Shown: one piece after another, positions 1-9,065 of the stretch | Layout: each line of letters starts with the position of its first letter | Numbering within the stretch: position 1 is the stretch's first letter | DNA from: an uncultured Methanosarcinales archaeon | GTDB taxonomy: Archaea > Nanobdellota > Nanobdellia > Woesearchaeales > CAYSVS01 | Assembly: GCA_964479425.1 (NCBI GenBank) | Contig: CAYZMD010000001.1 | Location: 936 to 64,935 of the forward strand | Direction: 5' to 3' | DNA length: 64,000 bases | Translations under genes and position numbers: made by a program | Notes under the pieces: generated by a model | What the model was told of the DNA's origin: nothing | Databases searched by the model: none | What the model saw: the letters and a program-made list of their open reading frames with translations, nothing else

Positions 1-3000
1 CTCATTCTAATAAACTTTACCCTTTTAATATATTTTTCATATATATATGGGGCAGCTAAAATTAAAATGAATACTAATAATAACAAAATACCAAATGGTG
101 CAGACGTACAAACGTTTTCTTTTCGTAGGAATGTTGCACAATCTTTAGGACAATTTATTTCAGTTTCTCCATTTCCACAAAATCCATTTCCACATAGGCA
201 TCCTGTAGCATCATATACTTTATCGGGGTTTACTTTTTTACCAATTATAATATATTCTTTATTACATTTAACATCCATATCGTAATATTTAATATTCCCA
301 AGAATAGCTTTATTCTCAATATCTTTATTAATTTCTTCGGCGACAATTTTTTCAATAAGTCTACGCGAAAGTGGATTATCCAATATTTCTGTATGTGTTT
401 CTTCAATATCCCAGAAATTTTCACATCTATTATTTAGGATAACATCATTTATGGATTGTGCACTTTCAATTGATACAATTCCGTCGTTTATTTCTTTATC
501 TCCAAACATTTCTAGTTTTATTAGTTCTTTCCCAAATTGAAAAGTTTTGGTTCCTGCTATAGAATAATATTTAATGTTTGGAACTATTGGCGTATTTTTT
601 CCATTAATTAAATCTTGCATTCCTGGACTATTCACGTCGACTATTGCAGTTCCTGAATTTATATTTGTTAAAAATTGACTTAGAGAAATTAACGTTTCAG
701 CTCCAGGTGTTCCTTTATTTGGAACCCCAACCAGTATTACTTTTTTTATTTTATTTAAATATGTATATGTTCCTGGTTTTTCTAAATTCACAGCATAACT
801 GTAATACAGGGCGTCTCTTGTTACTAGTCCCCCCATTGAATGTGCTACAATATATGCATAATCAAACTCGTTTGCATTGGCTTCTAAGTGATTAGCTAAT
901 TCAACAGCATTTTCTGATACTGCTTTTTCTGTTGGGTATCCAAAGGTCCAAACTTGCCATGGTTGGTTTGTTAGCCTTATATCTTTCAAAATATTTTCAA
1001 AAGTTTTAGGAGAAGACCCAAATCCGTGAACGAGTAACAAAGCATCTCTTACATAATAGTCAGGTTCATAATTTTTCTTTAATGTACTAAACTTACAGTT
1101 TGCACATATTTTTCCTATTTGAGCAATAACAATTTCTTTATTTCTGTCTAAATATTTATAAGGATTTTTTAATTTTGCAACTAGTTTATCTTGCGTTATT
1201 GTCTCTAGTGGCAACCAGGAGTCCTTTGATGTTTTTATATAAAGCTTATTGCTATTACTTTCAATAATATCTTCTTTTATCTCATCAACAGATATTATGA
1301 TTTCTTCACTCAAATTTACATCAGAAGAAATGGCAATTGGATTTCCAAGTATTTTTAATAGGCTATTTTTTGGTTCTCTCACAATATTTTTTGGTTCTCC
1401 ATAAGTAATTGAGGCTTGTTGGTTAAATTGAAGTTCAAACTCATCTTTTCTAATCCTGCTACCACTAAAGACTGTTTCTATAAATTTTTCTTGTCCCAAT
1501 CTTTTTAGATATTTACTTTGTGTACTAAACTCTTTAAACTCTTCTCCACAACTTAAAGAATTAATTTCTTCTAAATTAACTGTCTTACACTCTCCATTAC
1601 AAGCATACGCTTGAATATCTTCATAATTATTAGGCAAAGATAAGCTTAATTTTCCGCTTTGTTCGCATTTTAGTTCAAATTTGTCAATCAAAATATCATA
1701 ACCCAAAGGAATATTAAAATTTAAATCCGAAGAAAATATTTTAAAATTATTTTGATATGATTTTTTGTCTTTTATGCAAGGCATGTTTTCAACATTAACT
1801 GATTTTATGTCAATAGAGCTTTCTAGTCTCTGTTTAAAAATATCAAAAACACTTGTTTCTTTTTCATTAATTATTTGTATTTCCAGCATGACTATGTCTG
1901 AGACAATTCTTCTGAGCTTTACCCTTATGTCAAATATATCATCATCATCTAAATTAATATTAATTATTTCATTAATAGATAAACCAAAATTAAAAGGCGT
2001 ACTTGCTACGGTCATATTAATTTTATATCCAATTTTATTAATTGTTAATTGATGCTCTTTTCCTTTTACACTGAAATTTCTACTTTCAAACTCAGGAATA
2101 TTTAAAAATATTATTTTAATTCCTGTATTTGAAGGAACTTCAGTTCTTGCTTCTTTTTTACATTTATTACAAGGCCCCCCACAGTCAGTTTTTTTCTCTC
2201 CTTGATTTTTTAATCCATCATTACATGTAGCAAGGCATGGCTGGCACGATCCCCCACAATCAGCACCAGTCTCGCCTTGATTTTTAATATTGTCTGTACA
2301 AGTCCCAATACCTGTACACATTCCATTAACACAAATATCTCCATTATTAGGACATCCGCAACTAGAACAATCATTAATTAGATTTAAATTAAAACCACAA
2401 TATTTTGGTTTTTCTATACTGCACTTTTCAACTTTAGTTCCATCTTTACATTCTAAAAAACATGCAGGACAACTTCCTCCACAATCTACATCGAGTTCAT
2501 CCCCATTTTTAATTTTATCTTTGCAGCTAGCGCAAGGTAGACAATTTCCTCCACAATCAATTCCAAGTTCATTTCCATTCTTTACATTGTCTGTACAGCT
2601 AGACATAACACATAAATTTGCAACACAATAATTGCTCAGGCAATCGATATCTAAAGAACAAGTTCTTCCAGCTCCACAGGCTTGACATGGACCTCCACAG
2701 TCTGTGTCCGTTTCTTCCTGATTTAAAATGGTGTCACTACAGCTTGCTTGTCTACATGTATTATCTTTGCAAAATAGACTTAAGCAGTCATAATTTATGT
2801 TACATTTTTCTCCAACTTTACAAGCATAACAACTTCCTCCACAATCTGTGGATGTTTCATCTCCGTTAAAAACTAAATCATTGCAACTTGCTTCTAAGCA
2901 TTTTCCATTGCTACAAAAATTAGAATTACAATCTGAATTTATATTACAGTTTTTATTTAAACTACAGGAAATACAACTTCCTCCACAATCCACATCAGTT

Positions 3001-5795
3001 TCACCCTGATTTAATGAATCATCTCTACAAGATGCAATTTTGCAAACATTATTTACACAATTCTTTGAATTACAATCAGTATCTATATTACAAATTTTAT
3101 CTAATGCACACTTATTACACAATCCTCCACAATCCACATCGCTTTCTTGATTATTCTTAAAATTATCTGCGCAACTTGCTGCAGAACAAGTATTACTTAT
3201 GCAATTATCATTTAAACAATCATTGTTTATATTGCAACTTTTGCCTTCATCACATTTACCACATATTCCTCCACAATCCACATCTGTTTCATCTTGATTC
3301 TGTAAAATATCTATACAGCTCGGAGTGATGCATTTGCCAAATAGACAAAAGTTATTTGAACAGTCTATGTTTGAATTGCATTTATCATTGTCACTACATT
3401 TATTACAACTTCCACCACAATCTACATCACTTTCATCCTGATTTATTATATTGTCAGTACAACTTTCTTGAGTACAAATATTATTTACGCAATTGTTTGT
3501 TATACAATCATCATTTATACTACAACCTTTTCCTGTCTGACACTTGGAACATATTACTCCTCCACAATCTATAAATGTCTCATCTTGATTTTTATTATTA
3601 TCTGTACAAGACGCTGTGTTACATATGTTATTCAAGCAATAATTACTTGCGCAATCTGTACTTATAGAACAACTTTTTCCAAAACCACACCCAATACATA
3701 ATCCTCCACAATCCATATCGCTTTCGTCTTGATTCAATAAATAATCAGAACAACTTTCTTCAAGGCAGATGTTATTAATACATAGGTTGGTCAGGCAATC
3801 ATCGTTTATGCTACAGCTTTTTCCAACATTACATTCGTTACAATTTCCTCCACAATCTACATCACTTTCTCCATAGTCTTTGATGTCATTATTACATCCT
3901 GATTCTACACACTTACCATTCATACACAATCCTGAAGTACAATCCATACTCCATGTACAATCCTTTCCTATATTGCATCCATCACATATTCCTCCACAAT
4001 CTACATCTGTTTCATCTTGATTTCTTATCCCATCACTACATGTTGGGATGTATGTACAACTTTTACTCTCACTATTGTCTCCTGTACAATCATTATTATC
4101 GGGACACAAACAACTACAGCTTCTTATTTGTGTGCCGCCAGGCAAGCAAGTTTCCCAATCACTACAATCCCAACTAGCAGAGCATATTTCTATTTCTGGT
4201 GGTTCATCATTTCCTCCTCCCCCCCCTCCTCCTGTAGATTGAGGTTCATTATCAATTGTAAATCCATGCAAGGTATTTATTTCATTTTCTCCTAAATCTC
4301 TACATACATAAAATTGAAAGTAAGTGTTCCCTTGTAAAACCGTTCTATTTACTTTGTGTAAAGTTCCATTAGACCATGTAAAATTAGCTCCATTTGTAAA
4401 ATTAAAAACAGAAAACCCATATTCACAATTTGCAAATTCGTTAGTAGATATTGTTAATTCTACTCTTGTTGTTGTATATGATAGAGTAACTCCACTATTT
4501 GGATTTTGTATACTTATTATTGGAGTAGTTGTATCAATAGTAAAATTTACATTTGTTGTATTAAGATTGCCTACGGTGTCGTTAGCATAAGCTAAAAGAG
4601 TATTGCTTCCTTCACTAAATATTCTATAAACAGGATTTGTGTATGTTTCATTTTCAGTTCCATTAAAGAACCAAATATTATTTCCATTGCTTGTTATATT
4701 TACTAGAACAGTTACATTATTGTATGTAATATTTTCTGGGGAATTTATTGATATCGTCGGAGCAGTTGTGTCAAATACAATGCTATAATTATCTTCTTCA
4801 CTCCAATTGTTGTTTTCTGCAGAATCATAACCTAAACAATTCCATTCAAATGTATCTTCATAGGGTAATGTATAAGCAAAAGTTGTAGAGTTTGATACTC
4901 CTAATAAATTTGTTGTGTTAGTATGTATATTATCTTCAGTTGAATTCCATAAATAAAGTGTTAAATTAGCAATACTTGTATCATCTGTAATATTACAGTT
5001 AAATGTTTGTAATGCTGTTGAAGTAACTGTTGCATTTATAGGATTTATTAAATGGATAGTTGGATCAACTATATCTTGTTCATTCTCACTAGTTACCAAT
5101 ATCAATTCAGGAGAATAAGTAATATTTTCTTTCGAATAAAAAGAACAACTACAATTAGAATTCTGATCTCTCCATAATCCAAAAGAGATTATTTTATCTC
5201 CATTTAAAACTTCTATTGTGTAATTGGTTACGTTATATGACATTGTTACCAAAACCAATGCTAAATCTTTATTATCAATTTTTGTACCTAAATTTGGTTT
5301 ATTTGCCCATAACAAAGTACTTTCTAACCATGAATCATCATTAACTTTGTATAATGCAACTTTATTATATTGTGAATCACAGTAGACGTTTCTAACGTTC
5401 ACAACCAAATTTAAAGTTGCATTGATTATATTACTTGAGTTATAGTCTGAAATATTAAATTTTAAAAATGATTGTCTATGAAAGCTAGTGCTATCCCATT
5501 CATCATTATCAACAGTTAATGGTTCTCCGTCATGGTTTGTGTCTCCGTAGAAAATACTTCCACAATATGCATCATCTGTTGGAATAATTCTTACATTGGT
5601 TTCGCTTATTTTTGTCTCTGGAATAAAACCCATAATATTAGACATATCTTCTTTTTCATTAATTAAATTTGTAAAATTAACACTATTATTATCGACAGTT
5701 GCCATTCCCGTTATCCCTGATCCTGTAAATATCATATTCAAAAGTAGCAAAAGAATTCCCCATTCCATGATTTCTTCTACTATTTTTTTATTCAT
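1..5795 (-). CDS. Giant secreted/membrane-anchored multidomain surface protein (partial, C-terminus beyond window start): signal peptide, NxS/T-rich region, poly-Gly hinge, ~13 Cys-rich 48-aa repeats, lipase-like alpha/beta-hydrolase domain, C-terminal TM anchor
   Basis: ATG at 5795-5793 overlaps the stop of the upstream gene (ATGA). By-eye translation runs without a stop to position 1, with frame consistent at both ends. The ORF track lists no minus ORF here, which is expected only if the ORF is open at the window edge. N-term MNKKIVEEIMEWGILLLLLNMIFTGSG. Repeats carry DVDCGG. LLVHGFG lies at ~1018-1035 and GxSxG AHSMGG at ~830-847. C-terminal TM APFGILLLLVFILILAAPYIY at ~50-110. Confidence 0.8.
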   Translation of the reverse strand, partial: MNKKIVEEIMEWGILLLLLNMIFTGSGITGMATVDNNSVNFTNLINEKEDMSNIMGFIPETKISETNVRIIPTDDAYCGSIFYGDTNHDGEPLTVDNDEWDSTSFHRQSFLKFNISDYNSSNIINATLNLVVNVRNVYCDSQYNKVALYKVNDDSWLESTLLWANKPNLGTKIDNKDLALVLVTMSYNVTNYTIEVLNGDKIISFGLWRDQNSNCSCSFYSKENITYSPELILVTSENEQDIVDPTIHLINPINATVTSTALQTFNCNITDDTSIANLTLYLWNSTEDNIHTNTTNLLGVSNSTTFAYTLPYEDTFEWNCLGYDSAENNNWSEEDNYSIVFDTTAPTISINSPENITYNNVTVLVNITSNGNNIWFFNGTENETYTNPVYRIFSEGSNTLLAYANDTVGNLNTTNVNFTIDTTTPIISIQNPNSGVTLSYTTTRVELTISTNEFANCEYGFSVFNFTNGANFTWSNGTLHKVNRTVLQGNTYFQFYVCRDLGENEINTLHGFTIDNEPQSTGGGGGGGNDEPPEIEICSASWDCSDWETCLPGGTQIRSCSCLCPDNNDCTGDNSESKSCTYIPTCSDGIRNQDETDVDCGGICDGCNIGKDCTWSMDCTSGLCMNGKCVESGCNNDIKDYGESDVDCGGNCNECNVGKSCSINDDCLTNLCINNICLEESCSDYLLNQDESDMDCGGLCIGCGFGKSCSISTDCASNYCLNNICNTASCTDNNKNQDETFIDCGGVICSKCQTGKGCSINDDCITNNCVNNICTQESCTDNIINQDESDVDCGGSCNKCSDNDKCNSNIDCSNNFCLFGKCITPSCIDILQNQDETDVDCGGICGKCDEGKSCNINNDCLNDNCISNTCSAASCADNFKNNQESDVDCGGLCNKCALDKICNIDTDCNSKNCVNNVCKIASCRDDSLNQGETDVDCGGSCISCSLNKNCNINSDCNSNFCSNGKCLEASCNDLVFNGDETSTDCGGSCYACKVGEKCNINYDCLSLFCKDNTCRQASCSDTILNQEETDTDCGGPCQACGAGRTCSLDIDCLSNYCVANLCVMSSCTDNVKNGNELGIDCGGNCLPCASCKDKIKNGDELDVDCGGSCPACFLECKDGTKVEKCSIEKPKYCGFNLNLINDCSSCGCPNNGDICVNGMCTGIGTCTDNIKNQGETGADCGGSCQPCLATCNDGLKNQGEKKTDCGGPCNKCKKEARTEVPSNTGIKIIFLNIPEFESRNFSVKGKEHQLTINKIGYKINMTVASTPFNFGLSINEIININLDDDDIFDIRVKLRRIVSDIVMLEIQIINEKETSVFDIFKQRLESSIDIKSVNVENMPCIKDKKSYQNNFKIFSSDLNFNIPLGYDILIDKFELKCEQSGKLSLSLPNNYEDIQAYACNGECKTVNLEEINSLSCGEEFKEFSTQSKYLKRLGQEKFIETVFSGSRIRKDEFELQFNQQASITYGEPKNIVREPKNSLLKILGNPIAISSDVNLSEEIIISVDEIKEDIIESNSNKLYIKTSKDSWLPLETITQDKLVAKLKNPYKYLDRNKEIVIAQIGKICANCKFSTLKKNYEPDYYVRDALLLVHGFGSSPKTFENILKDIRLTNQPWQVWTFGYPTEKAVSENAVELANHLEANANEFDYAYIVAHSMGGLVTRDALYYSYAVNLEKPGTYTYLNKIKKVILVGVPNKGTPGAETLISLSQFLTNINSGTAIVDVNSPGMQDLINGKNTPIVPNIKYYSIAGTKTFQFGKELIKLEMFGDKEINDGIVSIESAQSINDVILNNRCENFWDIEETHTEILDNPLSRRLIEKIVAEEINKDIENKAILGNIKYYDMDVKCNKEYIIIGKKVNPDKVYDATGCLCGNGFCGNGETEINCPKDCATFLRKENVCTSAPFGILLLLVFILILAAPYIYEKYIKRVKFIRM
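2150..4060 (-). repeat. Tandem ~144-nt (48-codon) intragenic coding repeats, about 13 copies, each encoding an 8-Cys module: SCxDNxKNQDETDVDCGGxCxKCxxGKxCxxNxDCxSNxCxNNxC
   Basis: Plus-strand motif tcctccacaatc (revcomp gattgtggagga = DCGG) recurs at ~2471, 2538, 2690, 2838, 2980, 3124, 3265, 3412, 3558, 3702, 3846 and 3994, i.e. a 141-152 nt period from 2538 onward. Confidence 0.8.
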
Positions 5796-6259
5796 TTTTT
5801 CTTTGCCCTATTATATGCTGTCCAGATTGTTTTTGGGTTTCTGTCTATCAATCTAGCAATATCTGTAAATCCTAAGTCATATTCTTTTTTTAGAAATACT
5901 GACATTGATTCTAAAGCAGATAATTTTTTCTTAAAAAACATTTTAATAGGAATATCAAAATCAGAATCATAAACGGTTATTTTATCTTTATTTTTTGCAT
6001 TATTATATGTTGTCCATATTGTTCTGTCGTCTCTATTCAAAATCTTAGCAATTTGACTATATTTATATTTACAATTTTCTTTAAGATATTTAACAACACT
6101 TTCTAGTATACTTAATTCTTTTGTAAAAGCAGATAAAGGAATTTTTTCTCTTCTTTCTTTTAATGAATTTGATTTGTTACTTAATTTTTTAAGAAGCATT
6201 TCTATTAATACCTCTTTATCTACGTTCTCTAGAACTTTTGCAATATTCTCTTTTTTCAT
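5792..6259 (-). CDS. Tandem helix-turn-helix domain protein (two ~45-aa HTH repeats, sigma-70 region 4/LuxR-like), putative DNA-binding regulator
   Basis: Internal duplication LSxLESxVKYLKE...IAKILNRDDRTIWTTYNNAK and LSALESMSVFLKK...IARLIDRNPKTIWTAYNRAKKK. Its stop overlaps the start of the giant gene (tcat at 5792-5795). Confidence 0.55.
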   Translation of the reverse strand: MKKENIAKVLENVDKEVLIEMLLKKLSNKSNSLKERREKIPLSAFTKELSILESVVKYLKENCKYKYSQIAKILNRDDRTIWTTYNNAKNKDKITVYDSDFDIPIKMFFKKKLSALESMSVFLKKEYDLGFTDIARLIDRNPKTIWTAYNRAKKK

Positions 6260-6492: not shown

Positions 6493-7716
6493 TTAAATTA
6501 CATTTATACAATCTGTTGCTAAATTCCCAATTACAATTTCCTGTTCTTGTTGAACATTTTTGTCAATGCCTATTACGTTGTTTAAGACATTAATCATCTT
6601 TCCAGAAATCATAAAATCTTTGATTGGTTTTCCATTATATATTGCATGTTCTACTTGCACGGAAAAATCAGAAGTTAATGAATTACCTGTATGTGCTCCC
6701 ATAATAGATTCTATTAATAATCCGTTTGGAATTTTATTTTTGTCTGAATTAAAGTATACATTGCTAAAGGCAATTCCTCCACCAGAACTATTTCCTGTTG
6801 TTTTTGTCTTTGTATGTGTTGCAGTATTATGATCGAAAATAAAATTTTTCAATTTTCCTTTATCTACTATGCACGTATTTTTACTTGCTGTTCCTTCATC
6901 GTCAAAACTACTTGCTTGCATTCCTTTTAATCCATTATCATGTATAGATATATTTTTCATAATATTTTCATTAATTTTTCCACAGAACAAACTTTTGTGT
7001 TTTTCTACATTCTTTCCATTAAAATTATCAAGTAAACTATATTTTGCTAATTCTGAAAAAACTTCAGGGTTTAAAATTACAACTTTTGGTTTATCACTTA
7101 ATTTTTTAGCATTAAGATAAAACAATGTTTTTTCGTTTACTCCTTGTCCCCAGCCACTTGATGTAAAAAACTGATTGCTTTCTTTGTCGTCAAACCAACT
7201 ACAGACCTTTCCTTTATGTTTTGCAACTGTACTTACTCCAATTCCATATTCTGTAGATTTTTCGCAGATATTTATTCCATTAGAATTAAGAATACAATTT
7301 TCGCTTACATTTGTTTGAACAGCCCCACTACTTAAAATTACATTATCTTTAACAATATCTTTTATTATTTTTCTTGCTTCGTCTACTAATATACTTTCGT
7401 CGATATTTGCAAGTTTTTTATCAAAGTTATTTATTTTCTTATATTTGTCTAGGTTGGGTATTCCATAAAAATATTCTTTATTTGCATTTAATTTTGCAAT
7501 TTTGATTGCTTTTTTTACTAATTCTTTATTGAGTTTATTTCCGCTTGCAAACCCTTCTTTATTATTTTTCCAAACCCTTATTGAATATAATGCTGTTTCT
7601 TTTTCCTGAAATGATTTAATGCTATTATTTTCTATGCTTAGAGATTTTTCTTGATTTTTATCTATATTTACTTGAATATGATCTACAAAATTATCTGCAT
7701 ATTTGATTACATTCAT
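6493..7716 (-). CDS. tldE: TldE/PmbA family metalloprotease component
   Basis: PmbA/TldD-fold C-terminal region (GAHTGNSLTSDFSV...). The internal ATG (MNVIKYADNF) gives an ATGA overlap with the tldD stop. The ORF-track start at 7797 is an upstream extension. Confidence 0.7.
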   Translation of the reverse strand: MNVIKYADNFVDHIQVNIDKNQEKSLSIENNSIKSFQEKETALYSIRVWKNNKEGFASGNKLNKELVKKAIKIAKLNANKEYFYGIPNLDKYKKINNFDKKLANIDESILVDEARKIIKDIVKDNVILSSGAVQTNVSENCILNSNGINICEKSTEYGIGVSTVAKHKGKVCSWFDDKESNQFFTSSGWGQGVNEKTLFYLNAKKLSDKPKVVILNPEVFSELAKYSLLDNFNGKNVEKHKSLFCGKINENIMKNISIHDNGLKGMQASSFDDEGTASKNTCIVDKGKLKNFIFDHNTATHTKTKTTGNSSGGGIAFSNVYFNSDKNKIPNGLLIESIMGAHTGNSLTSDFSVQVEHAIYNGKPIKDFMISGKMINVLNNVIGIDKNVQQEQEIVIGNLATDCINVI

Positions 7717-9065
7717 TGTCCGCCCACCCTTGCTTTTTTTATTAGTATGCTTGGACAAGGACCATATACTGGAACGTATTGTCCTCCTTTTCCACAATGT
7801 CCTGCAAAACTAGGTTCATATTCGTCAGATATCATTGTAATATCATTAAGTATTTTTAAGGTATTTCCTGATAGGCTAACTCCTTTTAATCTTCCTTTAA
7901 GTTCTCCTCTTTCTATGGCAAAGCCTTCTTGTGCTGAGAATGTAAAATTACCAGTTGTTGGATCAACCTGTCCTCCAACGCTTCCTTTTAGAAAAACTCC
8001 TTTCTTTACATTGGAAATAATATCTTCAAATTTATCTTTACCCTTTTTTATATATGTATTTGACATTCTTACTTGAGGCAAAAATGATGCAGATTGAGCT
8101 CTTGCATTTCCTGTTGGCATTGCGTTTAATTTTGCTGCAGTTTCTCTTGAATGCATAAGACCTTTAAGAATTCCTTTTTCAATTAATGTCGTTTTTTGTG
8201 CAGGTATTCCTTCATCATCGTAAAAATAACTACCCCATAAATTAGGCATTGTTGCATCATCATATATATTAATGAATTCTGGAGCTATTTTTTTTCCGCT
8301 TAGTCCTTTTAGACAGCTACTATTTTGTAAAATTTGATCTGCTTCTGCTGCATGCCCTAGTGCTTCATGTATAAAAACATCAGTCAAGGAGCCGTCACAA
8401 ACAACAGGTATATTTCCTGCTTTTGAATGCTTGGCGTTTAACATTTCTAGCGCCGTTTGTGTTGAGCTTTTTATTAACTCTGGCATTCTTTTTGTAACTT
8501 CATATCCTCTTAATTCCCCAACTCTTCCAAAGAAGTTCTCTATTTTATCATTCTTTTTTGTTGTTACTGAAGCTCCAATCATAGTATACTTTAGATTTTG
8601 TTGTATTTCGCTACCTTCAGAATTTACAAATAATAGTTTTTTATCAATTTCATTATAATTAACTAGACAGTTTTTTACTTTATCGTCTTTAATTTTGCTA
8701 TTTTTTAGGACTAGTTTCTTTTTTTCTTCTAGTGTAACATTTTGATTATCTATTTTCCATTTACTTTTTACATTCTTTTTTATTCTTTTTGTTTCAGCGA
8801 ATTCTCTTTTTTCTGTAGTATTTTTATCCATTAATTTAGCAATTTTTAACGCTTTTTTAACTCCTTTCTCAATATTATTAGAATATACAAAACCTTGTCC
8901 ATTGCCAGATATTATTCTAATGGAACTTCCTTGTCTTTGATTAGAATCAAAATTCTTGATATGGTTGTTCCAAGCAGAAACAGATAAATTATCTATATCT
9001 TGTCTTCTAAAGTCCCAATATTTAACATTCTCTTTTTTTAATAGTTTAGAAATTTTATTATACAT
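7713..9065 (-). CDS. tldD: TldD metalloprotease
   Basis: HEALGHAAEAD (HExxxH) zinc motif. TldD-like length (450 aa). Immediately upstream of the tldE/pmbA partner. Confidence 0.75.
   Translation of the reverse strand: MYNKISKLLKKENVKYWDFRRQDIDNLSVSAWNNHIKNFDSNQRQGSSIRIISGNGQGFVYSNNIEKGVKKALKIAKLMDKNTTEKREFAETKRIKKNVKSKWKIDNQNVTLEEKKKLVLKNSKIKDDKVKNCLVNYNEIDKKLLFVNSEGSEIQQNLKYTMIGASVTTKKNDKIENFFGRVGELRGYEVTKRMPELIKSSTQTALEMLNAKHSKAGNIPVVCDGSLTDVFIHEALGHAAEADQILQNSSCLKGLSGKKIAPEFINIYDDATMPNLWGSYFYDDEGIPAQKTTLIEKGILKGLMHSRETAAKLNAMPTGNARAQSASFLPQVRMSNTYIKKGKDKFEDIISNVKKGVFLKGSVGGQVDPTTGNFTFSAQEGFAIERGELKGRLKGVSLSGNTLKILNDITMISDEYEPSFAGHCGKGGQYVPVYGPCPSILIKKARVGGQ

Follow-up and report, generated by a model that had tools for sequence, protein, structure and literature searches.

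The locus and the host protein

The window, i.e., the whole stretch of 64,000 nucleotides that was analysed, begins with a stop-free frame on the minus strand that encodes a giant protein with a tandem array of cysteine-rich units. A complete unit comprises two halves, referred to here as A and B, and some units consist of half A only. The features of this region are the following:

3..5795, minus strand: giant surface-protein ORF; stop-free frame of at least 1931 aa, ATG at 5793-5795, C-terminus running past the left window edge
4212..4232, minus strand: Gly7 linker (aa 522-528) from the Ig-like region to the Cys-rich putative stalk (translation)
4044..4184, minus strand: pre-array Cys-rich element CSASWDCSDWETCLPGGTQIRSCSCLCPDNNDCTGDNSESKSCTYIP (aa 538-584) (translation)
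3900..4043, minus strand: AB unit 1 (aa 585-632) TCSDGIRNQDETDVDCGGICDGCNIGKDCTWSMDCTSGLCMNGKCVES (unit table; profile i-Evalue 4.6e-16)
3756..3899, minus strand: AB unit 2 (aa 633-680) (unit table, profile)
3612..3755, minus strand: AB unit 3 (aa 681-728) (unit table, profile)
3465..3611, minus strand: AB unit 4 (aa 729-777; 49 aa, extra residue after CGG) (unit table, profile)
3321..3464, minus strand: AB unit 5 (aa 778-825) (unit table, profile; in the AF2 model, pLDDT 94)
3177..3320, minus strand: AB unit 6 (aa 826-873) (unit table, profile; in the AF2 model)
3033..3176, minus strand: AB unit 7 (aa 874-921) (unit table, profile; in the AF2 model)
2889..3032, minus strand: AB unit 8 (aa 922-969) (unit table, profile)
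2745..2888, minus strand: AB unit 9 (aa 970-1017) (unit table, profile; 62% identity to ortholog unit 7)
2601..2744, minus strand: AB unit 10 (aa 1018-1065) (unit table, profile; 62% identity to ortholog unit 8)
2457..2600, minus strand: two A-only half-units, SCTDNVKNGNELGIDCGGNCLPCA (aa 1066-1089) and SCKDKIKNGDELDVDCGGSCPACF (aa 1090-1113) (profile positions 2-25 only, i-Evalue ~2e-8)
2304..2456, minus strand: 51-aa 8-Cys insert LECKDGTKVEKCSIEKPKYCGFNLNLINDCSSCGCPNNGDICVNGMCTGIG, a Cys-rich element of another kind (translation; conserved in the ortholog)
2154..2303, minus strand: two A-only half-units (aa 1165-1189 and 1190-1214) (unit table, profile)

The domains of the protein are arranged in the following order: a signal/TM segment, CBM96, an Ig-like region, the Gly7 linker, the Cys element with its W motif, the AB array, a conserved region of 370 aa, an alpha/beta-hydrolase (AHSMGG), a CLCGNGFCG motif and a TM helix; Pfam recognised CBM96 (E 1.8e-21) and DUF7379 (E 3.4e-8). 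The N-terminal 499 aa carry 28 NxS/T sequons, and the 668-aa Cys-rich region carries none, versus 11.9 +/- 3.1 expected. The window also encodes L32e, S4e, L5e, Hef and Topo VI; the GC content is approx. 30%, and the named relatives of Topo VI-B, at 70-74% identity, belong to Woesearchaeota/Nanoarchaeota. Judging from these sequences, the host is a tiny, symbiotic-type DPANN archaeon, Woesearchaeota/Nanoarchaeota-like and low in GC, and the protein is a type-I cell-surface protein of very large size.

The element that precedes the array shows a TSP1-like WxCxxWxxC...GxQxRxC pattern without a Pfam match, and it is kept in L005 (a Methanosarcinales-labelled bin) and L003 (a Nanoarchaeota SAG), directly before the AB module or modules in both; in L003 a lone AB module is placed directly before a TM helix. 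No family match was found for the 51-aa insert. The ortholog, P0148/L005, has 5021 aa and the same domain order, with additional TM helices and a tail rich in Lys, and GGGEEEPP takes the place of the Gly7 linker. It has eight AB copies versus ten in the window protein, and the end units of both proteins pair with each other at 60-62% identity, versus a background of 44-54%. Only two real relatives were found for the C-terminal 716 aa, P0232 and P0233, and both lack the array, which indicates that the array is an optional insert.

The repeat array

The sequence-only reading had described a plus-strand motif that recurs 12 times with a strict period of approx. 144 nt over positions 2150-4060. 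The motif, TCCTCCACAATC, is present in 10 exact copies and in 12 when one mismatch is allowed, all on the plus strand between 2250 and 4001; its chance expectation is 0.18, and 12 copies were reached in none of 100 shuffles. There are 14 occurrences of the degenerate form CCNCCACARTC, the reverse complement of D-C-G-G. Repeat finding gave a start-to-start spacing of 144 nt for 9-12 copies; the array was not reported by TRF because its copies are only ~59% identical.

The coding strand is the minus strand, and positions 2154-4043 contain ten 8-Cys units of 48 aa (49 aa in one of them) and four half-units of 24-25 aa. The consensus that had been assigned to each period is the one found in the ten units of this frame, SCxDxxxNQDETDVDCGGxCxxCxxGKxCxxxxDCxSNxCxNNxC. 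The four last DCGG motifs (2154-2600) are those of the half-units, with the 51-aa insert between the second and the third; therefore, the 144-nt period is true only for 2601-4043. A profile search in six frames found no AB module elsewhere in the window.

Between units, identity is 59% at the nucleotide level and 49% at the amino acid level, and by codon position (1/2/3) it is 0.64/0.63/0.51. It had been proposed that the repeats diverged at wobble positions and are old and selected. Divergence is not confined to the wobble position; nevertheless, age and selection are supported, given that conservation reaches 98-99% in the columns of Cys, E11 and D15 across 2656 instances of the module (E11 99%, D15 98%) and that the end units have positional orthologs in a second genome.

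Two mini-modules in each unit

The unit had been taken for a single 48-aa module with eight cysteines, and its whole Cys spacing is Cx13Cx3Cx2Cx5Cx5Cx4Cx4C, without a terminal CC. Each unit is, however, a pair of unrelated and separable 4-Cys mini-modules. Half A has the form CxDGxxN(G/Q)xE(T/S)DVDCGGxCxxC, with D4, N8, E11, D13 and D15 as near-invariant residues of an acidic loop. Half B has the form GxxCxxxxDCxSxxCxxxxC, and its Cx5Cx4Cx4C spacing is seen in 10/10 window units and in the consensus of the 2656 instances; its loops are nearly free to vary, and the non-Cys, non-acidic positions of the module are highly variable. Besides the A-only units of the window protein, A-only arrays of 32 and 39 copies are present in P0152 and P0153, and P0121 carries a B-only unit. 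An origin of the unit by internal duplication was rejected, since hhalign showed the profiles of the two halves to be unrelated (probability 0.7%).

Comparison with known families

No match on the repeats with E <= 10 was obtained in Pfam or NCBIfam with the full-length protein, with units taken singly or in pairs, with the array or with five homologues. In profile searches of PDB, run with the complete unit and with each half on its own, no match of the LDLa, TSP or EGF type was better than E ~0.3. A match of this kind to an established module had been named in advance as the observation that would make the module a known one; these searches found none. With half A, the PDB profile search returned only chance 'DCGG' strings (calreticulin, Dcp2), PDB sequence and fold searches with the unit gave no significant match, and a full-text literature search turned up nothing relevant on a DCGG-type motif or on cysteine-rich surface proteins of DPANN archaea.

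LDL-receptor class A (LDLa) modules have approx. 40 aa, six Cys in a 1-3/2-5/4-6 pairing and, at the C-terminus, a calcium cage of the form D-x-S-D-E. This family (PF00057) was discarded: it gave no Pfam match with E <= 10, the only LDLa-type match in PDB was VLDLR (E 3.2 over 9 residues), and the unit has eight Cys (4+4) with a probable 1-3/2-4 pairing. Thrombospondin type-3 (TSP3) repeats carry DxDxDGxxDxxD calcium motifs; PF02412 gave no Pfam match, and the consensus N-G-x-E-T-D-V-D-C-G-G is devoid of DxDxDG. The initial remark that the Cys spacing is unlike that of LDLa or TSP3 is borne out by these comparisons. EGF domains have six (or eight) Cys paired 1-3/2-4/5-6 within one domain, and cbEGF adds the motif D/N-x-D/N-E/Q-C; EGF, laminin-EGF and cbEGF gave no Pfam match, and only fibrillin-1 was retrieved (E 0.27 over 9 residues). 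In EGF, only the N-terminal subdomain resembles the 1-3/2-4 pairing of the unit halves (PMC12723725). Judging from its position and composition, the unit may work in the manner of cbEGF, TSP3 and LDLa, as a small, disulfide-locked tandem extracellular module that has an acidic cluster beside a Cys and builds rods; in contrast, each of these families has its own Cys number, spacing and pairing, as well as a defining motif (DxDxDG, D/N-x-D/N-E/Q-C, or the SDE cluster with six Cys) that is absent from the unit. The Myxococcus cysteine-rich repeat (TIGR02232/DUF4215) gave no NCBIfam match with E <= 10, either for the window array or for the Myxococcota homologues. This repeat and CysRRep are likewise Cys-rich, plentiful in surface proteins of Myxococcota and patchy in eukaryotes; nevertheless, the CysRRep spacing, Cx6-9Cx5-7Cx8-11Cx7-8CC (Daugavet et al. 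2026, bioRxiv 10.64898/2026.06.07.730663), differs from that of the unit, which has no terminal CC.

It could be argued that the unit is a divergent member of one of these families (LDLa, TSP type 3, EGF/laminin-EGF or the Myxococcus cysteine-rich repeat) missed by simple searches, given that the acidic motif before a Cys is superficially that of LDLa, cbEGF and TSP3, that TSP_C (PF05735) follows the array in P0004, P0014 and other homologues, and that hmmscan filters can hide weak, biased matches. The failure of the searches even at E <= 10, together with the Cys arrangement and the missing DxDxDG, makes this highly improbable.

Half B has closer counterparts. The best PDB sequence match of the unit is the DPY module of Dumpy (1OIG), at E 0.023, a match that is not statistically secure; this E was obtained with the window profile, and it was 0.27 with a broad B profile, and Dkk1 and a spider toxin followed at E 0.1-0.2. 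Like DPY, half B has four Cys in approx. 20 aa, a conserved 'sDCxS..C..g.C' signature, a predicted beta-hairpin and probable C1-C3/C2-C4 disulfides, and it occurs in long tandem arrays of giant extracellular structural proteins. On the other hand, the DPY spacing is Cx5Cx5Cx4C instead of Cx5Cx4Cx4C, and Dumpy alternates DPY with EGF modules whereas B alternates here with the unrelated acidic A, in prokaryotic hosts. CREMP modules, which are related two-disulfide modules (PMC12723725), can also be likened to half B, and so can, with regard to the backbone of the C-terminal part of the unit, peptides with a disulfide-directed beta-hairpin (DDH) or an inhibitor cystine knot (5FZV, 1HVW and baculovirus conotoxin-like peptides) and the colipase-fold Cys domain of Dickkopf; however, the DDH and knot peptides are single-domain secreted toxins and not tandem stalk modules, and their E values are 0.1-3. 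The C1-C3/C2-C4 disulfide pattern is known from DPY, CREMP and DDH modules, and DPY and CREMP form extended structural filaments (PMC12723725, PMC11891777). Half B bears a weak likeness to the DPY module and to the DDH/knottin core, known two-disulfide hairpins like those of Dickkopf-type modules, and is probably not fold-novel.

Probable disulfides and predicted fold

All eight Cys are kept in 2624/2656 instances. Where they are lost, paired losses affect C1+C3 of A (six cases), C2+C4 of A (one case) and C1+C3 of B (two cases). These nine cases, with the weak DPY and knottin matches, suggest disulfides Cys1-3 and Cys2-4 within each half, so that B would be a small disulfide-directed beta-hairpin and A an irregular loop pinned by two disulfides. 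The original description of a coding, extracellular, disulfide-type tandem module is supported.

A structure model had been proposed as a means to examine the pairing. With three units and a 45-sequence alignment, AF2 reached a pLDDT of 94.4 and predicted one turn of helix at 'DC' and, in half B, a beta-hairpin that covers residues 40-45 of every unit; the model of two A-only units, from a shallow alignment, was unusable (pLDDT 49). It may be that A needs B to fold, or that the prediction was short of alignment depth. In Foldseek, knottin peptides superpose with the C-terminal 23-29 residues of the unit (rmsd 0.5-0.8 A, E 0.2-3.5). In the sequence alignment, CII, CIII, CV and CVI of the knot correspond to C29, C35, C40 and C45 of the unit; hence, the two B disulfides would be CII-CV and CIII-CVI of the knot. 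At the CIV position, 71% of the instances have Ser, and the CI-CIV disulfide is missing, therefore B would be DDH-like and form no knot.

Distribution of the module

The search of protein databases with a repeat profile, a check that had been suggested for the novelty of the module, found it in 14,204 cluster representatives from Myxococcota, DPANN and Altiarchaeota archaea, CPR bacteria and one entry of a eukaryotic protein set. The suggestion of a new family holds as far as no significant match was found in Pfam, NCBIfam or PDB; given these numbers, the module is not a discovery of this window. The family is widespread and uncurated in Archaea and Bacteria, and possibly in algae. In the set of 214 homologues with an initial Met, 143 have the beginning of the array within 150 aa, 120 have at least 200 aa after it, and 97 have a lipobox-like N-terminus. 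The partner domains are diverse (CBM_3, TSP_C, fibrinogen_C, PKD, Kelch, SBBP, DUF11 and GEVED), and the homologues include lipoproteins and secreted proteins from aerobic Myxococcota, along with T9SS cargo among Bacteroidota-type proteins.

Possible function of the array

The best explanation is probably that the array is a rigid, disulfide-stapled stalk of a DPANN surface protein. Ten tandem 48-aa units and then four half-units would form the central stalk; the four-disulfide units would stack head-to-tail into an extended, glycan-free rod that resists proteases and denaturation, and this would hold a distal 'head' of CBM96 and Ig-like domains off both the TM anchor and the lipase-like alpha/beta-hydrolase near the membrane. 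The reach would depend on copy number, with ten units here and eight in the ortholog. The conserved acidic residues D4/N8/E11/D13/D15 make it plausible, as a conjecture, that the A loop binds Ca2+ and stiffens the rod in the manner of cbEGF or TSP3 arrays. In the window protein and its ortholog, the array sits between the anchor and the globular domains; this position and the domain promiscuity of the module point to a spacer, and would fit a role in binding or adhesion just as well. Extracellular disulfides are also a less obvious assumption for the many DPANN archaea whose habitat is anoxic water.

DPANN archaea rely on contact with their hosts, and the array itself could be a functional adhesin or ligand-binding surface (for a host S-layer, a glycan, a mineral, a metal or homophilic contacts), whose acidic loops would act multivalently and might be bridged by Ca2+. 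The conservation of E11 and D15, as strong as that of the cysteines, is more than a pure spacer seems to need, the full absence of sequons could leave a binding face free, and the module is plentiful in surface proteins of predatory and social Myxococcota. Nevertheless, dedicated binding domains (CBM96, Ig-like) are already present in the same protein, the remaining positions vary widely (49% identity between units, with the B loops nearly free), many unrelated head domains accompany the module, and copy number differs between orthologs, all of which is typical of spacers; we therefore regard the adhesin as unlikely. Far less likely is that the Cys coordinate metal (Zn or Fe-S clusters) in a metal-binding or redox repeat. 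Four Cys in 24 aa, including a CxxC, recall the spacing of zinc ribbons and Fe-S proteins, and the host is probably anaerobic, judging from its DPANN lineage. However, the N-terminal signal, the C-terminal TM helix and the sequon-rich flanking domains place the region outside the cell, homologues are secreted by aerobic Myxococcota or exported as T9SS cargo, the Cys are lost in 1+3 and 2+4 pairs as expected of disulfide partners and not of tetrahedral sites, and the structural matches are disulfide-bonded hairpins and knottins.

With the stalk as the preferred reading, a broader proposal can be made, which we consider possible but doubtful: half A would be a two-disulfide loop module that binds Ca2+ and is new to the catalogues, AB arrays would represent a stalk architecture that spans the domains of life, a prokaryotic counterpart of cbEGF/TSP3 rods (in DPANN, Altiarchaeota, Myxococcota, CPR, green algae and perhaps giant viruses), and half B would be a disulfide-directed beta-hairpin that is ancient and abundant in prokaryotes. 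The literature assigns this hairpin to peptides of arachnids and sea stars only (PMC11891777). Should half B be truly related to DDH and DPY, the age and spread of two-disulfide hairpin modules would far exceed what the animal-centred literature supposes, and, if ancient in prokaryotes, the hairpin would be a candidate for the deep origin of the knottin core. For DPANN surface proteins that contact hosts, telling stalk from head in a protein of 2000-5000 aa indicates which domains should be tested for host binding. The module lies in more than 14,000 protein clusters without a Pfam or NCBIfam model or a solved structure, which leaves hundreds of residues unannotated in many giant surface proteins of DPANN, Altiarchaeota, CPR and Myxococcota, and defining A and B would improve their annotation.

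Organization of the repeat array and its reading frame

The repeats lie in a giant open reading frame on the minus strand, which runs without a stop codon from an ATG at 5793–5795 to the left edge of the window (at least 1931 residues). On the plus strand, the motif TCCTCCACAATC, the reverse complement of the D-C-G-G codons, is present in 10 exact copies, or 12 with up to one mismatch, all within 2250–4001, against 0.18 copies expected by chance (shuffles); its degenerate form CCNCCACARTC occurs 14 times. A repeat search revealed a start-to-start spacing of 144 nt in families of 9–12 copies. Tandem Repeats Finder reported just a 72-nt fragment of the array, which was largely missed because the copies have a mean identity of only 59% at the nucleotide level. 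Cutting the translation at every DCGG delimited the units and the following elements were recognized.

Elements of the giant surface protein, all on the minus strand, from its N-terminal side
4044–4184: W-rich cysteine element of 47 residues, CxxxWxCxxWxxC...GxQxRxC, just before the array
2601–4043: ten AB units of 48 residues each (one of 49)
2154–2600: four half-units of 24–25 residues with the first four cysteines only
2304–2456: insert of 51 residues and eight cysteines, LECKDGTKVEKCSIEKPKYCGF...CSSCGCPNNGDICVNGMC, between half-units two and three
516–2153: conserved region of about 370 residues and a lipase-like alpha/beta-hydrolase, outside the cell and close to the membrane
111–218: membrane-proximal motif CLCGNGFCGNGETEINCPKDC, just N-terminal to the transmembrane (TM) helix

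The consensus of the ten units is SCxDxxxNQDETDVDCGGxCxxCxxGKxCNINxDCxSNxCxNNxCxxA, with 13 invariant columns that include all eight cysteines, E11, D15 and D34. From these it follows that the sequence-only reading had described the repeat correctly, except for two points that are amended here: the repeat is real and coding, in a stop-free minus frame, with ten units at the 144-nt spacing and the consensus that had been proposed. The 12 motif copies it counted are found if one mismatch is allowed; the last four DCGG motifs belong to the half-units and not to 48-residue units. The 51-residue insert matched no family, and it is kept in P0148, the ortholog of this protein.

A composite unit with two disulfides in each half

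The unit had been regarded as one 48-residue module; instead, it is a pair of mini-modules with four cysteines each. Half A (24 residues, CxDGxxNGxETDVDCGGxCxxC) occurs without B in four copies in the window protein; P0152 and P0153, homologues that have T9SS sorting tails, carry pure A arrays of 32 and 39 copies. Half B (GxxCxxxxDCxSxxCxxxxC) is found without A at the end of another homologue, P0121. No relation between the two halves was detected by profile-profile comparison (probability 0.7%).

Conservation was evaluated in 2656 full instances, drawn from 231 homologues. The complete set of eight cysteines is kept in 2624 of them, and the best-kept columns other than cysteine are E11 (99%), D15 (98%), G17 (98%), D34 (94%) and G18 (93%), while D4 is present in 86% (otherwise N) and N8 in 73% (otherwise D). 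In half A, the first and third cysteines were lost together six times and the second and fourth once; in half B, the first and third were lost together twice. This loss in pairs points to a 1-3 and a 2-4 disulfide within each half, and speaks against four-cysteine metal sites.

Units 5–7 were modelled with AlphaFold2 from a 45-sequence alignment of three-unit segments (mean pLDDT 94.4, pTM 0.65). In the model, half A is almost devoid of regular secondary structure, and half B has a short helical turn at 'DC' as well as a beta-hairpin. A Foldseek search of the PDB with the three-unit model gave no significant match; the best local matches were knottin/DDH-type toxins and colipase (1HVW, 5FZV and 6ENA; rmsd 0.5–0.8 Å across 23–27 columns, E about 1–3), and in the viral library, baculovirus conotoxin-like peptides (0.8 Å across 29 columns, E about 0.2). 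Pithovirus Cys-rich 'transmembrane proteins' in BFVD matched the model with E values from 3e-6 to 5e-3, suggesting that giant viruses may carry related Cys-rich tandem modules. When profiles were compared with the PDB, the whole unit retrieved the Dumpy DPY module 1OIG (E 0.023), aligned on half B; half B retrieved the spider toxin 5FZV (E 0.12), Dickkopf-1 (E 0.15) and DPY (E 0.27), and half A only chance strings. In the toxin alignment, C29, C35, C40 and C45 correspond to cysteines II, III, V and VI of the knot, and a serine replaces CIV; half B would thus agree with the definition of a disulfide-directed beta-hairpin. Its inferred pairing, C1-C3/C2-C4, is also that reported in DDH, DPY and CREMP modules (PMC11891777, PMC12723725). 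The evidence that places half B in this known class of two-disulfide hairpin modules is therefore weak but consistent. A pair of A units modelled by itself, from an alignment of little depth, gave a poor prediction (pLDDT 49), although the existence of pure A arrays suggests that half A folds autonomously.

Known families and distribution

The repeats had no match in Pfam-A and NCBIfam using hmmscan at E values up to 10, with queries that ranged from a single unit or a pair of units to the 712-residue array and the entire protein, and also with the half-unit stretch and with five homologues; this includes TIGR02232, the Myxococcus cysteine-rich repeat. Hence no established module of the kind that had been named as refuting was found. 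LDLa, TSP3 and EGF/laminin-EGF are ruled out by profile, by the number and spacing of the cysteines and by the inferred pairing, as had been anticipated for the spacing of LDLa and TSP3; the spacing of 'CysRRep', a repeat described recently, also differs from that of the AB unit. The precomputed Pfam annotation of 120 homologues covers flanking domains only, the source names are all 'hypothetical protein' or refer to a flanking domain, and no description of the motif string was found in literature full text. The unit is thus an uncurated composite, and its acidic A module is undescribed.

The suggestion of a new family holds as regards curation, but the family is very common and not peculiar to the window. 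A word-indexed search with the array matched more than 6321 proteins, and an exhaustive HMMER search with a 10-unit profile against 1.84 billion cluster representatives matched 14,204 at E ≤ 1e-3, 6,440 at ≤ 1e-10 and 1,678 at ≤ 1e-30, with up to 39 matched stretches per protein. The best 120 homologues have 8–22 copies with a period of 48–51 residues, and 1046 of their 1076 full instances have exactly eight cysteines. At least 557 loci in GTDB species genomes carry array matches; the best 79 of these come from Myxococcota, Polyangia, Bradymonadia and one Uhrbacteria (CPR) genome among bacteria, and from Woesearchaeota, Pacearchaeota, Nanoarchaeota, Altiarchaeota and Methanosarcinales-labelled TPA bins among archaea. 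One EukProt entry (JGI portal Chrzof1, which we take to be the green alga Chromochloris zofingiensis) also matches, possibly through contamination.

Architecture of the protein, its host and its ortholog

The host is a DPANN archaeon: the window (GC about 30%) carries archaeal genes for r-proteins L32e, S4e and L5e/L18, the Hef helicase-nuclease and Topo VI-B, and the named relatives of the latter, with 70–74% identity, are from Candidatus Woesearchaeota and Nanoarchaeota. The giant protein starts with a hydrophobic signal/anchor, followed by a CBM96 domain (PF24517, E 1.8e-21), a region that is Ig-like and weakly similar to Big_13, a Gly7 linker and the W-rich cysteine element; then come the AB array, the ~370-residue region, the alpha/beta-hydrolase, the CLCGNGFCGNGE...C motif and, where the window ends, a TM helix. 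The W-rich element is reminiscent of thrombospondin type-1 repeats, has no Pfam match, and stands directly N-terminal to AB modules in three archaeal proteins (those of the window, of the ortholog's locus L005 and of L003, a Nanoarchaeota SAG locus). The ~370-residue region matched no family; the hydrolase is DUF7379/DUF676-like with an AHSMGG nucleophile elbow, and besides the ortholog, region 516–2153 has just two real relatives among 5.8 billion proteins. The motif CLCGNGFCGNGETEINCPKDC resembles Cys motifs of the CGNGxCExGE type and is kept in P0148, P0232 and P0233, among which one bears a bacterial label.

P0148, a clear ortholog of 5021 residues, has its elements in the order seen in the window protein and is 45% identical to it across 491 residues of the C-terminal region. 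Its first TM helix is followed by additional TM helices and by a tail of about 500 residues rich in Lys, which indicates that the window protein is truncated C-terminally by the window edge and that the array is extracellular. P0148 has eight AB units against ten in the window; the first two and last two are positional orthologs (60–62% identity versus a background of 44–54%), from which it follows that the array is old, with turnover in its middle. The age that had been proposed is therefore supported, but divergence was not confined to wobble positions, given the identities of 0.64/0.63/0.51 by codon position; amino-acid identity between window units is 49%. The L005 record is labelled 'uncultured Methanosarcinales archaeon', a label that looks doubtful for a contig with a GC content of 36% and a giant gene shared with the Woesearchaeota-like window. 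Many low-GC loci of TPA assemblies with DPANN-like giant surface proteins bear the same label.

A possible stalk

The array always lies between anchor and globular domains. In the window protein and P0148 it separates an Ig/CBM head from a hydrolase-plus-TM base, and in L003 a single AB immediately precedes the TM helix. Among 214 homologues with a Met start, the array begins within 150 residues of the N-terminus in 143, is followed by at least 200 residues in 120, and a lipobox-like N-terminus is present in 97. The array is combined with a wide variety of other domains (CBM_3, TSP_C, fibrinogen_C, PKD, Kelch, SBBP propeller, DUF11, GEVED, metallophosphatase). In several Myxococcota homologues (P0004, P0014, P0027 and others) the array directly precedes TSP_C (PF05735), the position occupied in animal thrombospondins by the Ca2+-binding type-3 repeats. 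P0232 and P0233, the only close relatives of the C-terminal 716 residues of the window protein, lack the array, which is thus an optional insert. The 668-residue Cys-rich region (2154–4184, residues 538–1214) has 84 Asn and no NxS/T sequon, versus 11.9 ± 3.1 expected (zero in 0 of 2000 shuffles), and the N-terminal 499 residues (4191–5687), with the Ig-like region, have 28; P0148 shows none in its 587-residue Cys-rich region versus 221 in the 3231 residues N-terminal to it.

Together, the position, the diversity of partners, the optional presence, the change in copy number and the absence of sequons are consistent with a stalk that is rigid, stapled by disulfides and free of glycans, and whose length would depend on the number of units. 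Such an array could be compared with the DPY and CREMP arrays of animals, which form extended structural filaments (PMC12723725). The main alternative is that the array itself would serve as a multivalent adhesive surface. For the stalk, the near-invariance of the acidic residues makes half A a candidate for binding Ca2+, with a stiffer rod as the result, a conjecture that we consider possible but less likely than not.

Neighbouring genes

Directly upstream of the giant gene is a gene of 155 codons (5792–6259, minus strand) whose product has two internally repeated HTH halves and resembles Sigma70_r4_2. Because its stop and the giant gene's start codon overlap, both may be co-transcribed or co-regulated. 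Adjacent ORFs of 434 and 450 residues (6493–9065, minus strand) resemble, on visual inspection, a metalloprotease pair of the PmbA/TldD type.
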